Of a stretch of DNA of 64,000 nucleotides, positions 13,788 to 18,900 are shown piece by piece. Within the stretch, counting starts at the first letter, position 1. Each line of letters starts with the position of its first letter. The notes below the pieces were generated by a model. It saw only the letters and a list, made by a program, of their open reading frames with translations, was not told the DNA's origin and searched no databases. Source of the DNA: an uncultured Candidatus Saccharibacteria bacterium (lineage in GTDB: Bacteria; Patescibacteriota; Doudnabacteria; UBA920). The DNA lies in assembly GCA_964631145.1 (NCBI GenBank), contig CAZVXT010000002.1, positions 65,140 to 129,139 on the forward strand, in the 5' to 3' direction. The translations under genes were made by a program, and so were the position numbers.

Positions 13788-13809
13788 CTGGCGGAGAGGG
13801 AGGGATTCG
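13788..13809 (-). repeat. 22-bp partial copy of the tRNA-Ser 3' end; direct repeat with 18806-18827 and a putative att-site remnant
   Basis: ctggcggagagggagggattcg is identical to the 3' acceptor/T-arm of the tRNA-Ser at 18807-18900; similarity stops exactly where GC content rises. Confidence 0.7.
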
Positions 13810-14140
13810 GTTACCTCACGCTAGTCTCCTCAACACATTCGTTTTGCTCATAGTGTTTCGTCGACATAACGCTGCGGCAACCACCGACGATTTCAACTTG
13901 CCACTGGCAACTTGAAATCTATTTTCTCATCCCCCAAAACCATAAACTTTTATACCACTTCGTGATATAAAAGTTTATGGCGGTGTATGTGGGTATGGTA
14001 CCCATGGTTACAAGTGTTATAAGGGTATTCTAGCATATTTCTCTTTTTGTTTTTAGGGTTTGTGGGTCGGGGTCTATGTTTTGTAAATGCGACAAATGAG
14101 ACACGAAAAGGGCTTATTTGGCTTTGTCTCAATTACAGAA

Positions 14141-15175
14141 TTATTCAGGCTGGCTTATGCTTTCGCTCAAATCATAAGCATCCCCGTGAGACAATAAACC
14201 CTTATATGATGCGACCAATCTGTCTGTGCGATTTTCAGCAAGTTTCTTAAACATCCTCCTTTTTGTGGAAGTTCTTGGCACCCGATGATGCGGAAAATGC
14301 ACCCAGCCGAGAAAATCGACGCCGGAAGCGAGTGTTTTTATAAACACTTTATCCGGATGGAGCGAGAGCTTTAACTCCGTTTCCAAAAACAGCGATATCT
14401 CAGGTAGTATTTTTTCGAGATACTTTCTATCTTCGTGCAGAATTACGAAATCATTGGCATACCTGATACAGTATTCGGCTTTCAGGTTACGCTTCATATA
14501 GTGATCAAATTCATTCATGTATACATTCACTAAAAGTTGAGACGTGAGATTGCCCAGCGTAAGACCTACGCCGGGTCGGCCGTCAGTATGGAAACTACTG
14601 ATTACATCCCACAAGAGATTTACTGTATTGCCATCCGGCATTCTCCGTCTCAAAATATTAACTAAAACTGTATGATCGATATTGGCGAAGAATTTTCGGA
14701 TATCGCATTTTAAAACCCATATGGTGCGCGTATGATTCTTCGAAACTTTCCGTGCATAGTCGCGGAACCTATCAAGCGCCCGGTGTGTGTCTTTCCCGCG
14801 ACGGCAGGAATAGGAGTCGAAAATAAATTTCTGATCGAAATACGGATACAAGACTCTGTAAATAGCGTGATGAAGGAGGTGACCTCGCACGGTTGCTTTA
14901 TGTATATTGCGCGGCTTCGGATCATTGATGCGGAACGCTGTGTATCCGCCGTGGCGGTAAGTTTTCTCGGCAAGGTCGCTACTAAGGGGAATAATATTAT
15001 CGGTAAACCTAACGGAGAATTTTTTGACGTCTTTGCGGCCGCGCTTGCCTTTGAGGAATTCGCGCCATGCTACAAGCAGGTTTTCCACAGAAATGATATT
15101 ATTATAGGTATGAAAAAATCCGGCATTTCCTCTCTCTCTCTCTCTCGGTGGCGCCTCGATTCTCCAGAGAATCAA
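14141..15175 (-). CDS. diversity-generating retroelement reverse transcriptase; the YxDD box reads YAND
   Basis: N-terminal LLVAWREFLKGKRGRKDVKKF; motif 3 KCDIRKFFANIDH; the DGR-type motif 4 GLTLGNLTSQLL (IGNxxSQ in place of the group II QGxxxSP); RYANDFVIL; lies immediately downstream of the TR on the same strand. Confidence 0.85.
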   Translation of the reverse strand: MILWRIEAPPRERERGNAGFFHTYNNIISVENLLVAWREFLKGKRGRKDVKKFSVRFTDNIIPLSSDLAEKTYRHGGYTAFRINDPKPRNIHKATVRGHLLHHAIYRVLYPYFDQKFIFDSYSCRRGKDTHRALDRFRDYARKVSKNHTRTIWVLKCDIRKFFANIDHTVLVNILRRRMPDGNTVNLLWDVISSFHTDGRPGVGLTLGNLTSQLLVNVYMNEFDHYMKRNLKAEYCIRYANDFVILHEDRKYLEKILPEISLFLETELKLSLHPDKVFIKTLASGVDFLGWVHFPHHRVPRTSTKRRMFKKLAENRTDRLVASYKGLLSHGDAYDLSESISQPE

Positions 15176-15530
15176 AGAGGGATATTTGCTGTGGGTAAGT
15201 ATTGTTCCTCATATTTCCAAAGGCACTCGTTATACGATCGTTTCTAGGATATAAAATAAATTCCTAGACCTTCTTGAGCTTACCCATATCGCTTATTTTA
15301 CCGAAAAAGAAAAGAAAGCGGAAAAAATTTCCGAATGCATTTTAACGCTGGATACGCTCAAATTCTTAGTTGCAGTTGCGTGGGAAGGCAAGCTTGTCAC
15401 TAATAAGCAATGCGAAGAGGTGGCTAGAAAGCTTGAAGAAACCGGCAAGATGTTCCACGGCTGGAAGAAAAATCTGGAAAATCCTGAAAAGAAAAACCGC
15501 GACCTCTAAGATCGCGGAAAAGAAGACAGT

Positions 15531-15662
15531 TTCGAAGGCAGAACACGAACTTGTTGTCCGGATTCCACTCGTTGCCGGGATTCGCCCAATCGTTGTTCAG
15601 CCACAAACCGTCATCGTTGCGTTCGAGGTTGAAAACGTTCGGGTTGCCGTCGGAATCGGTTT
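15531..15662 (-). repeat. DGR template repeat (TR), sense on the minus strand
   Basis: ~130-bp near-copy of the target 3' end; in the VR frame it encodes GNPNVFNLERNDDGLWLNNDWANPGNEWNPDNKFVFCL, which is rich in AAC codons. Confidence 0.8.
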
Positions 15663-15934
15663 GTGCGATGCACCGTCAATACCACTGCCCGCCTGGTGCG
15701 CAGAGCGCAAAAGACTGGGCTGAATTTTATGCGTGATCAAGAATCAGCAAATGCACCACACCAAGTATTTTCTTTTTTTAGACTTTGATATAAATCCTCT
15801 CTGCCAAGCCGTAACCGGGCAGACTCTCAACTCATACAAGCCAGAAAGGTCTTGAAAAGCCGTAGCCGTTCAATACAACCTATCTTTCCGTATTATACCG
15901 CTTGATCTGTATTTTGTACCGCTTTTTTGCTAAA

Positions 15935-17779
15935 ATGAAATTGCATATGGAAAAACACCCGCTTCATCTTAAAAACCCAGAATTGCAGACTTCTCCTGAA
16001 GTCCAGCGTGCTGTCGTGCGCGACGAGCGGGAAAGCGGAGAGAAAGTTCCGAATAATCCATCGGAGCGCATCGAGGCTTACATGGATCGCCTTAAGAATA
16101 TCTTCCTTAATCCAGATCAACGCGTCCGAGAACGCAATCTCGAAATGTTCCGCGACAAGATCTATGACGCGCTTATCATAAAGAAAGAGAATTTCCCTGA
16201 TTCATACTTTGAGCTTCAAAAGCGCATCGCCCGGGAACGAGGCCAGCACATAGAAGAAATTCCCGCAGACGTCCGCGAACAGATAATGGATACCGCGATC
16301 GAAGATCAACGACATTCGCTTGATGCGTGGATGGAGTATCTTACTTCGCCCGATGCTGTTTATCCTGCTTGGTTCAAATACTACGCATGGAATCAGATCA
16401 TCAAACTCTCGCAATTCGACAAGGAACGCGGCGAGTTCAAGACGCGCACAGATTCTACCGTGGCGCCCTTCCCAGATATTTATCGCGAGCCGTTAGCTCA
16501 GATTGCCGATCTTTACGAACGAGTCAAAGACGATAACAAAGATTCCGAGGCCCGCCGAGAATTCGACAAGAAGTTTCCTGCGCTCTATGCCGATCTTATC
16601 TCAAAGTCTCTGGCGGCTTCCATGGAAAACCGCGAGGAAGTGCGCGGAGCGTGGATGAAATACGAACAGGGCGACGGCGAAGCGGCTCAAAAACTATTCC
16701 AGTCTCTTGAAGGAAAAGGAACTGGCTGGTGCACGGCGGGAAAATCGACCGCTGAAACGCAGATAGAATCCGGCGACTTTTATGTCTACTACACCAACGA
16801 TTCAAGCGGTACTCCAACACAGCCGCGCCTCGCTATCCGAATGAACGGACAAAACCAGATCGGAGAGGTGCGAGGCATCCTGCCTTCCCAAGGCGTTGAG
16901 CCGATGATGCAGGAAGTATTGGACGAAAAGCTCGGCGAATTCGGCACCGAAGCTGATGCCTACCGCAAGAAAAGCGAAGATATGCGCATCCTCACGGCTC
17001 TTGAGCGCAAGCATGAAAAAGAGGAGTCATTTACCAAAGAGGATCTTGCGTTTTTGTATGAAATCAATTCTTCAATCGAAGGATTCGGGTACGAGAAAGA
17101 TCCTCGCGTCGCAGAACTTCGACGCGGACGTAATACTGAGGAAGATATACTGGTCATTTTTGAATGCACAAAGGATCAGATCGCTCACATCCCAAGTCAG
17201 ATAACCAAAGACACAAAGGCATATGTCGGCCAGCTTGAGCCAGGCATTTTCCAGAAGCTTCCAGCCACATTGGAACATGTATATACTTCCTTCCCCGACA
17301 AGAAGATATGTAGAGAAAGCGTCGAGGTCGGAGGAAAATCCGCAGAGCAGCTTATCTCCGAAATGGAAGCAGCAGGAATTAATATCAACAGTTATGCTAA
17401 AAGCATGCTGCAAAACTCTGCCGAGTTCATTCCTAGCCCTTATGCCGAAGACATGACGCTCATCCGTCTTACTGTGGAAGATCTTGGTTTCAAAACCAGC
17501 GCAACCACTACACAGGTATTCGAACGAGCCGAAGAACTCGGCCTCGAGTTATGTCCGCCTGATACCGGACCCAGCTACCGCCTTAAATACAAAGACCATC
17601 CTCTTAACGAATGGTTCCGGATCGGGATGAAGCCAATCACCGTTTCCGGCCGCCCGGACGTTTTCTACCTCGGACGCTACGATGACGGTTTGTGGCTGAG
17701 CGGCGGTTGGGCGAATCCCGGCGACGAGTGGCCTCCGGACTACAAGTTCGTGTTCCGCCTTCGCAAGTCTGAAGCTTAG
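15935..17779 (+). CDS. DGR target (variable) protein, 614 aa; no recognisable N-terminal domain and no signal peptide
   Basis: The C-terminal 40 aa are encoded by the VR; GC-rich; start taken as the ATG at 15935 (the track ORF begins at an upstream TTG at 15902); extended -10 tgctaaaat immediately upstream. Confidence 0.8.
   Translation: MKLHMEKHPLHLKNPELQTSPEVQRAVVRDERESGEKVPNNPSERIEAYMDRLKNIFLNPDQRVRERNLEMFRDKIYDALIIKKENFPDSYFELQKRIARERGQHIEEIPADVREQIMDTAIEDQRHSLDAWMEYLTSPDAVYPAWFKYYAWNQIIKLSQFDKERGEFKTRTDSTVAPFPDIYREPLAQIADLYERVKDDNKDSEARREFDKKFPALYADLISKSLAASMENREEVRGAWMKYEQGDGEAAQKLFQSLEGKGTGWCTAGKSTAETQIESGDFYVYYTNDSSGTPTQPRLAIRMNGQNQIGEVRGILPSQGVEPMMQEVLDEKLGEFGTEADAYRKKSEDMRILTALERKHEKEESFTKEDLAFLYEINSSIEGFGYEKDPRVAELRRGRNTEEDILVIFECTKDQIAHIPSQITKDTKAYVGQLEPGIFQKLPATLEHVYTSFPDKKICRESVEVGGKSAEQLISEMEAAGININSYAKSMLQNSAEFIPSPYAEDMTLIRLTVEDLGFKTSATTTQVFERAEELGLELCPPDTGPSYRLKYKDHPLNEWFRIGMKPITVSGRPDVFYLGRYDDGLWLSGGWANPGDEWPPDYKFVFRLRKSEA
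17637..17768 (+). repeat. DGR variable repeat (VR) at the 3' end of the target gene
   Basis: Aligned to the TR: 16 mismatches all at TR adenines (A to C/G/T) and one non-A mismatch in the last 10 nt; encodes TVSGRPDVFYLGRYDDGLWLSGGWANPGDEWPPDYKFVFRLRKSEA. Confidence 0.8.
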
Positions 17780-17849
17780 AAGCTTGGTTTCTTTATAACT
17801 TTTTGATTCTTTGGATCTTGGATACTTTGACCCTTTGGCATTTACTCGC

Positions 17850-17882
17850 GGAGCGAGTCCGCGCAATTTTTTATCATGAACA
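17850..17882 (+). terminator. GC-rich hairpin plus T-tract ~80 bp downstream of the VR; target-gene terminator and/or the DGR-associated 3' hairpin
   Basis: actcgcggagcgagtccgcgcaatttttt, with two alternative 6-bp stems. Confidence 0.5.
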
Positions 17883-18027
17883 AGAAAGCCAAAAAACCGA
17901 AATTTCAATATCCATTTACGGATAAAGAGCATGAGGAATCATGCAAGTTTTTGACTGTTCGTTTAATGAATACTGTATCTGACAAAGGATCAAAGGTTGA
18001 GCTAACTGAAACTATATACACTGGCGG

Positions 18028-18284
18028 AACGTGAAGGGCTAGAAATTGTAACCATGAAGCGCGAAAGCCATTCCGCGAAAGAGACAGGACAAAGACCAGT
18101 GTTCAACGAAATTATTGAGGAGCTAAGGCATGGTAAATATAACGGCATTCTGACATGGGCACCTGATCGTATATCAAGAAACGCTGGTGACCTTGGAAAA
18201 TCGTAGACCTAATGGATGCTGGAAAACTTCATGAAATACGAACTTTCGGGCAAAAGTTCGGCAATAATCCGAACGAGAAATTTC
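18028..18284 (+). pseudogene. serine recombinase fragment (residues ~50-140 of the catalytic domain), frameshifted; left arm of an inverted duplication
   Basis: Translates to LAEREGLEIVTMKREAHSAKETGQRPVFNEIIEELRHGKYNGILTWAPDRISRNAGDLGK(fs)IVDLMDAGKLHEIRTFGQKFGNNPNEKFLVR; ~75% nt identity to the reverse complement of 18285-18540. Confidence 0.6.
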
Positions 18285-18694
18285 TCGTTCGGAGAATTAC
18301 TAAACTTTTGATTGTAGGTTCGTATCTCAACAAGTAAATGGTTTTCCATAAGGTCAACCAACACACCGAGGTCGCCCGCGTTTCTACTTAAGCGATCTGG
18401 ATTCCATGTGAGAATCGCATTGTATTTACCAGCTCTTAATTCTTCAATCATTTGATTAAAGACAGGTCGTTGTCCAGAATTTTTTGCAGAGTGAGCTTCT
18501 TTTCGCACTGTGGCGATATGGAGGTTATCTCGTTCTGCTATTTGCTTCATTTCTTTAAGCTGTGAATCAATAGACAAAGCTTGTCTTTCTTCATCTTCCA
18601 TTGATTTACGAGCATACAAACAGTATCTAATATCGGGAAGGGGTTTATTTGGTAAGGTCGCCTTTCCCTCAGACCTTTTATTTATATTATTCAT
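18285..18694 (-). pseudogene. serine recombinase N-terminal catalytic domain, truncated at a palindromic junction (the track ORF 18209-18694 reads through the junction into the other arm)
   Basis: YARKSMEDEERQALSIDSQ catalytic-serine motif; homology ends at NEKFLVR, where a perfect 24-bp palindrome ccgaacgagaaatttctcgttcgg (18265-18288) joins the arms. Confidence 0.6.
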
Positions 18695-18806
18695 ATACTC
18701 AAACTCTCATTGAAAAGAAAGTTTGAGTCAAACAAAAAAGAACGATCGAGTCGTTCTTTTTTGTCTAAACCCTAGCTTTGTGGGTCACAAAACTAACAGG
18801 TTTTCC

Positions 18807-18900
<94 letters not shown>

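Follow-up and report, generated by a model that had tools for sequence, protein, structure and literature searches.

The reverse transcriptase (RT) of the DGR described here has Y-A-N-D as its catalytic box instead of YxDD, and the reading that we prefer, at a probability of about 0.88, is that this box is genuine, that it is fixed or nearly fixed, and that the enzyme belongs to an inactivated, frozen DGR of the Patescibacteria type at a tRNA-Ser island. An earlier note on this DNA had suggested an RT that may have lost its activity and a DGR that may be frozen, past adenine mutagenesis notwithstanding, and the suggestion gains support from several sides: four more near-universal RT residues are substituted, the accessory gene avd has a premature stop, and the variable repeat (VR) is identical in three runs while neighbouring SNPs segregate. 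Direct observation covers the sequence itself, its recurrence in separate runs, the statistics of conservation and the constancy of the VR from run to run. Loss of catalysis would follow by analogy, from the equivalent Asp in bRT (the RT of the Bordetella phage BPP-1 DGR) and in HIV-1 RT and from the requirement for Avd in Bordetella. Below, “the window” means the whole 64-kb stretch of DNA that was analysed, and coordinates are positions in it.

The catalytic box

The RT gene is an ORF of 344 codons on the minus strand (14141..15175, from a TTG at 15175) that matches Pfam RVT_1 at 1.7e-18; the public gene call starts at a GTG at 15088 and gives 315 aa. Among solved structures the closest is bRT (PDB 8ub7, 7.2e-34), and the DGR RT signature (I/L)GxxxSQ is present in motif 4 as LGNLTSQ (residues 207-213). 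Minus-strand translation of 14479..14423 gives AEYCIRYANDFVILHEDRK, from the codons GCC GAA TAC TGT ATC AGG TAT GCC AAT GAT TTC GTA ATT CTG CAC GAA GAT AGA AAG. The earlier note had read the box as Y-A-N-D rather than YxDD and had placed it a single G-to-A change away from an Asp codon; the minus-strand codons TAT GCC AAT GAT bear out the first point, and the homologs, which have GAY where the window has AAT, the second. Its position for the aat codon, about 14449-14451, has to be corrected: codon 241 lies at 14453..14455 on the minus strand (read from 14455 to 14453). It takes the place of the first Asp of YxDD, aligned to bRT D215, and is followed by D242 (bRT D216), while the motif-3 Asp is retained as D158 (bRT D138). 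A catalytically competent RT has both Asp residues of YxDD and the motif-3 Asp; the window RT, with its Y-A-N-D box, lacks the first of the pair.

A comparison with the closest DGR RT homologs, proposed at the outset, points the same way. In a MAFFT alignment of the best 120 database homologs (62-75% identity, all from Patescibacteria/Parcubacteria where named) the column of N241 is Asp in 120 of 120, and the residues around it, R-Y-A-[D]-D-F, are essentially invariant. The same column is Asp in 83 of 83 related loci from species-representative genomes (L001-L083) and in 135 of 136 diverse DGR-type RT representatives (33-65% identity), the sole exception being a sequence that aligns to the query just up to residue 228. 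Conservation of this degree (120/120, 83/83 and 135/136 Asp) rules out chance variation as the source of the Asn, and among the approximately 350 homologs examined no intact one has N at this position.

The role of this residue is known from other systems. In the cryo-EM structure of the bRT-Avd-RNA complex the catalytic aspartates are D138, D215 and D216, and a putative Mg2+ lies 2.2 Å from D138 and 2.3 Å from D215 (bioRxiv 10.1101/2023.10.23.563531), which agrees with the earlier statement that the first Asp of YxDD binds catalytic Mg2+ in characterised RTs. The bRT mutants YMAD, YMDA, YMAA and SMAA gave no bRT-dependent product (PMC5703328). In HIV-1 RT, D185N “genetically ablates RT” and disrupts metal binding (PMC7871456, PMC1976467), and it serves as an RT-dead, metal-binding-defective mutant (PMC7871456, PMC1976467, PMC10415136). 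These engineered mutants, used as RT-dead controls, concern the same residue class, the first Asp of YxDD; unlike them the Asn of the window is a natural allele, and a D>N change in bRT is not reported in the bRT literature examined.

Natural occurrences of the box were sought by a degenerate scan of a metagenome collection for [IV]RYANDFVI[LF], which returned eight loci. The sole same-family RT with YAND among them, L090 (Ga0066639_10183878), is a DGR RT of 59% identity that has D241N together with a TGA stop in place of W153. The other seven (L084-L089 and L091) are group II intron maturase-like ORFs with YANDF for YADDF; the frames of L084 (582 aa) and L089 (538 aa) are long and open, those of L085, L086 and L088 are remnants of 133 aa, and L091 has, in addition, Gly in place of the motif-3 Asp. 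Truncation or other lesions thus mark at least five of the eight loci, so that N at this position goes with decay there and not with activity. A further member of the RT family, L015 (DAIDAY010000030.1), has a TAG stop at W153 and three other changes at conserved columns. The stops of L090 and L015 at the conserved Trp153 (TGA and TAG) are both G>A changes.

Further lesions in the RT and in avd

The RT frame is open, and five near-universal residues are replaced in it. Besides D241N these are D98G (ggt for GAY, 14884-14882), R99H (cac for CGN, 14881-14879), G129D in the KGTH motif (gac for GGY, 14791-14789) and P206T in motif 4, GLPLGNLTSQ (acg for CCN, 14560-14558), all on the minus strand and equivalent to bRT D83, R84, G114 and P180. 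Each of the four is a single-base change between perfectly conserved flanking codons. Of 29 positions at which at least 93% of diverse DGR RTs agree, six differ in the window RT, among them Y236C, a variant common in the family; the best 120 homologs deviate at 0 to 2 of the same 29. Its private residues number nine, against a homolog mean of four, with no excess at variable columns, and the window RT, open in frame and otherwise well conserved, is not a classic decayed pseudogene. In a survey of DGRs, Wu et al. discarded more than half of the candidates for premature stops, truncations or poor TR-VR matches, and they advise caution in inferring function (PMC5758913). The window RT differs from such degenerate DGRs in that its frame is open and its lesions fall on catalytic or universal residues instead of being scattered.

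Several general accounts of these changes were tried and set aside. Global acceleration of the RT does not fit, since its terminal branch is long but within the range (8th of 121) and it has just nine private residues. Self-mutagenesis by the DGR was rejected as well, as only one of the five changes starts at a sense-strand A. The number of deviations at family-conserved columns is not extreme on its own, some of the 83 related loci reaching five, mostly conservative ones. The signal lies in which columns are struck.

The accessory gene is damaged as well. Searches by tblastn with homolog Avd proteins place avd at 15186..15509 on the plus strand, divergent from the RT, with 78-84% identity to its homologs over the full length, and a premature TAA (ochre) at 15252-15254 replaces codon 23 of about 107. 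With this stop restored to Glu the sequence matches Pfam bAvd (PF22296) at 1.3e-12. The position is Glu in 61 related loci and Asp in 18, and an early stop is absent from avd in all 79 related loci where avd was matched. A second change, G19V (gtt, 15240-15242), affects a Gly conserved in 75 of the 79. Cut by TAA at codon 23, the window avd is a pseudogene and not a functional member of the Avd family. Deletion of avd abolishes cDNA synthesis in the Bordetella system (PMC5703328), and avd nonsense mutations cut retrohoming to about 1e-9 (PMC12875486).

The template repeat (TR) has one private C>T change (R>C in the encoded FVFRLRK) at a base that is C in 13 of 13 related TRs. With this change counted in, the RT accounts for three G>A changes, one C>A and one A>G, avd for two G>T and the TR for its single C>T. 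All eight lesions are substitutions, with zero indels, and seven of them are single-base changes from GC to AT, as expected in a host of 34% GC.

Template repeat, variable repeat and target

The remaining parts of the cassette show what the DGR once did. The TR lies at 15530..15649, between the 3′ end of avd and the 5′ end of the target, with its sense on the RT strand (minus). The target gene, on the plus strand, encodes 610 aa from an ATG at 15947 to 17779 (the ORF is open from 15902) and is intact; the VR, at 17647..17766 on the plus strand, forms the target C-terminus and ends 13 nt before the stop, at the target 3′ end as in other DGRs. Over the 120-nt TR/VR core there are 16 mismatches; of the 32 adenines of the TR, 15 have another base in the VR. 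The earlier count of 16 A-specific differences therefore stands as regards a past adenine bias, with 15 mismatches at TR adenines, but has to be reduced by one, which lies at a TR thymine. This lone non-A mismatch was considered as a sign of decay and found too weak, as 27 of 68 related loci have at least one.

Homologous targets are found at more than 85% coverage in 36 related loci, and the window target is 84-87% identical to those of L008, L002 and L006. It deviates at none of 66 invariant columns, against a homolog mean of 2.1. Its C-terminal region has no significant match in Pfam or, by sequence, in PDB. An active DGR would be expected to go on diversifying its VR in the population; here the contigs of three runs pass through the VR without a break and agree in every base of it, with segregating SNPs about 1.7 kb or more away from it, so that diversification, as judged from the contigs of these three runs, is not seen.

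Relatives and known DGRs

The cassette resembles the BPP-1 DGR (bRT-Avd-TR RNA, PDB 8ub7 series) in its IGxxxSQ-type motif, in an accessory gene of the pentameric Avd family (Pfam bAvd) and in a TR/VR pair with adenine-specific differences at the target 3′ end. It differs in having Asn at the position of D215 and replacements at the equivalents of bRT D83, R84, G114 and P180, in an avd that is a pseudogene lying antisense between TR and RT, and in a target that is inverted relative to the TR and has no recognisable Mtd-like domain.

Its nearer kin are the DGRs of Patescibacteria (CPR), whose MAGs supply all of the closest homologs of the window RT and whose targets, as in the window, lack known domains. 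The “CPR set” of Wu et al. 2018 consists mostly of DGRs of architecture B3 (PMC5758913), which the layout of the window appears to match, and the DGRs of clade 2 (Patescibacteria) have below-average activity (Roux et al. 2021, PMC8144416). Compared with the related Patescibacteria DGRs, the window copy alone has inactivating RT and avd lesions. In every related locus with an avd match, avd stands directly upstream of and divergent from the RT, with the TR beyond the 3′ end of avd; wherever avd was matched in this RT family it lies between TR and RT on the opposite strand. A transcript running from TR to RT would then cross avd in antisense, and its “spacer” RNA, which recruits RT-Avd, would consist of avd sequence in antisense. 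The orientation of the target among related loci is direct in 55 and inverted in 13, including the clade of the window.

Target and avd are 84-87% identical to those of the L008/L002/L006 clade, within which L008 shares 87-88% with L002 and L006. The RT module is more diverged from this clade than the avd and target modules are: the window RT is just 72-74% identical to the L008, L002 and L006 RTs, which share 86-92% with one another, and its distance to every clade is about equal. DNA identity with L002, L006 and L008 falls at the avd/RT boundary (approximately 15235-15046). The cassette is a mosaic, which suggests that its RT module was exchanged by recombination.

The island

The DGR lies in an island of about 5 kb (13788-18827) with a GC content of 44-50% against 33-34% in the host. 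A 22-bp direct repeat, CTGGCGGAGAGGGAGGGATTCG, marks its left boundary (13788..13809, plus strand), and the right copy (18806..18827, plus strand) is the 3′ end of a tRNA-Ser(GCT) gene at 18807-18900 on the minus strand. The tRNA 3′ end, repeated at both borders, together with the recombinase fragments and the atypical GC identifies an island integrated at a tRNA gene. One truncated fragment of a large serine recombinase (17979..18289, plus strand) covers residues ~38-139 of 440 and has an internal stop and a frameshift; a second, inverted one (18260..18667, minus strand, within the ORF 18209-18694, Pfam Resolvase) covers residues ~9-143. Both belong to the N-terminal resolvase domain, and they meet at a near-palindromic junction with an inverted repeat (18226-18280 / 18281-18335). 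A full-length large serine recombinase of 440 aa adjoins the DGR in L002 and L003; in the window it is left only as two truncated fragments, so the island is immobilised as well. It looks like a small integrative element with the DGR and the recombinase as its sole cargo.

The order of events that we propose is as follows. The cassette, comprising target with VR, TR, avd and RT, would have arrived on the integrative island of about 5 kb at tRNA-Ser, and past diversification of the target would have left the 15 adenine-specific TR/VR differences. The RT would then have lost its Mg2+-binding Asp (D241N) and the four other near-universal residues, avd would have gained its ochre stop, and the serine recombinase of the island would have been broken. 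The last VR sequence would now be a fixed allele, because the target is still intact and the machinery is lost.

The allele in separate runs

A control search with ClpC, encoded in the same window, led to public per-run assemblies with an identical ClpC protein, and exact look-ups of window proteins then gave the contigs (the 90% cluster of the window RT itself is represented by a 166-aa fragment). In SRR12712864 one contig (L095/L101) covers window 13815-17927 at 100% identity; in SRR12712865 two contigs (L094 and L099) cover 13815-15940 and 15942-18833, also at 100%; and in SRR12712853 one contig (L098/L100) covers 14265-18755 at 99.93%, with three differences alone, at 15686, 15941 and 15979. 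The three cluster in the TR-to-target intergenic region and the first target codons, one being 6 nt upstream of the target ATG and one synonymous. At least two strains, told apart by these three SNPs, therefore coexist. Position 15941 is polymorphic within SRR12712865, where the assembly breaks exactly there and is unbroken through RT and VR. AAT and every other lesion of RT and avd are present in the contigs of all three runs, and RT, avd and VR are identical among these separately assembled contigs. The population evidence is of contig level, not of reads, so that low-frequency VR variants would be missed, and the three runs, whose accession numbers are neighbours, may stem from closely related samples.

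Contigs of different runs end at the same positions at both island borders (13815/13843 and 18810/18833), which may point to short sequences in common or to alternative junctions within the community, from other strains, an empty site or an excised form. These ends may, but need not, mark an empty-site allele, the overlaps looking like short shared k-mers at the tRNA/att region. A same-strain search of the metagenome contig collection for the exact DNA pattern, allowing R at the variable base, found nothing (0), and the GTDB species representatives hold no close relative of the window RT, the best being at 75%. In the ClpC control three of 316 invariant columns deviate, all conservatively.

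Alternative explanations

Error and polymorphism are the simplest alternatives to a genuine, fixed Asn. The N codon differs by one G>A change, and D98G turns GATC into GGTC, a type of change that occurs at methylation sites in some long-read data, which could both be taken as signs of an error in sequencing or assembly; however, the separately assembled contigs of three runs are identical over RT, avd and VR, the target gene on the same island is free of deviations at its invariant columns, ClpC, GatA, GatB and the aminoacyl-tRNA synthetases of the window are full length, and the eight lesions are all of substitution type with no indels, so that we give this reading next to no weight. At the contig level the three independent run assemblies exclude both the sequencing error and the minor within-population variant that the earlier note had offered as alternatives. 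A polymorphism in which AAT stands beside a functional GAT allele, to which the presence of at least two strains (the three SNPs in L100 and the contig break of SRR12712865 at 15941) lends some colour, is very improbable: AAT occurs in both strain backgrounds, the contigs run continuously across 14453-14455 in three runs although a lone SNP, at 15941, sufficed to interrupt the SRR12712865 assembly, and the exact-pattern metagenome scan with G or A at the variable base returned nothing else. The earlier note had also considered that the substitution might be tolerated; on this reading the DGR would still work, perhaps by means of Mn2+ or of Avd from elsewhere. In favour of a working system, the RT frame is open, conserved columns outside the catalytic ones are unaffected and the target is intact. 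The substitution is nevertheless unmatched in any intact homolog, the same-family YAND RT L090 is a pseudogene with a premature stop, at least five of the eight YAND loci are truncated or bear other lesions, avd has a nonsense mutation, four other universal RT residues are replaced, the VR is invariant across the contigs of three runs, the aligned bRT D215 lies within 2.3 Å of Mg2+, and the bRT YMAD mutant and HIV-1 D185N are dead; we therefore regard tolerance as improbable. Some points do weigh against the frozen DGR that we prefer. Asn can weakly ligate metal, and the loss of catalysis is argued by analogy; the RT has kept an open frame and good conservation elsewhere (nine private residues against a mean of four); a second DGR outside the 64-kb window could supply RT and Avd in trans, there being no second RT or VR within the window; and the monomorphism of the VR rests on the contigs of three runs with neighbouring accessions.

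How the RT was lost is a separate question, raised by the odd distribution of its lesions. All five fall in the 20 columns conserved in at least 95% of diverse DGR RTs and none in the 109 columns whose conservation is confined to the close family (Fisher p = 5.6e-5, or p = 3e-4 after weighting for GC>AT opportunity), a clustered pattern that is unexplained by neutral passive decay, which predicts scattered lesions. Such clustering could have arisen if selection shut the mutator off, if the RT was retained as a non-catalytic protein, or if some selection against misfolding persisted. That the universal catalytic and substrate-binding residues were specifically replaced (5/20) and the family-specific ones kept (0/109) through a selected switch-off or in a retained non-catalytic RT is a tentative idea, which we hold to be doubtful. 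The broader view that the loss was not passive, selection having shut hypermutation off stepwise, through several partial losses of function, to lock a favourable VR or the RT having been kept as a non-catalytic protein, we consider unlikely, if worth keeping in mind. It can call on the clustering itself, on private residues that are not in excess at variable columns, on the conserved target, and on a comparison of 150 diverse representatives in which the other multi-lesion sequences are almost all fragments and scattered multi-lesion loss occurs in no other full-length sequence bar P0145. In this DGR-type RT, which is full-length, Trp stands at four positions where Gly is universally conserved, most likely as an artefact of the genetic code, UGA=Gly (genetic code 25) having been translated as Trp by the gene caller. 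On the other side, the case is a single lineage whose nearest relative, at 75%, is too distant to date the substitutions or put them in order; D241N by itself should be enough to end activity, and further selected lesions would then be needless; the avd nonsense mutation argues against a kept RT-Avd function; and residual selection against misfolding of an expressed dead protein could mimic the pattern.

Implications

Dead DGR cassettes are a common and ordinary outcome, and the inactivated DGR of the window adds one well-documented case to a known high rate of inactivation. A DGR with an RT ORF, an A-biased TR/VR pair and a target passes the usual detection and can still be dead, and the evidence of its death may lie in single codons that automated pipelines do not check. 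The clustering of the RT lesions could mean more. If it is true that selection made the pattern, the window would hold direct genomic evidence of cells switching targeted hypermutation off to lock in a useful variant, something that has so far been hard to show.
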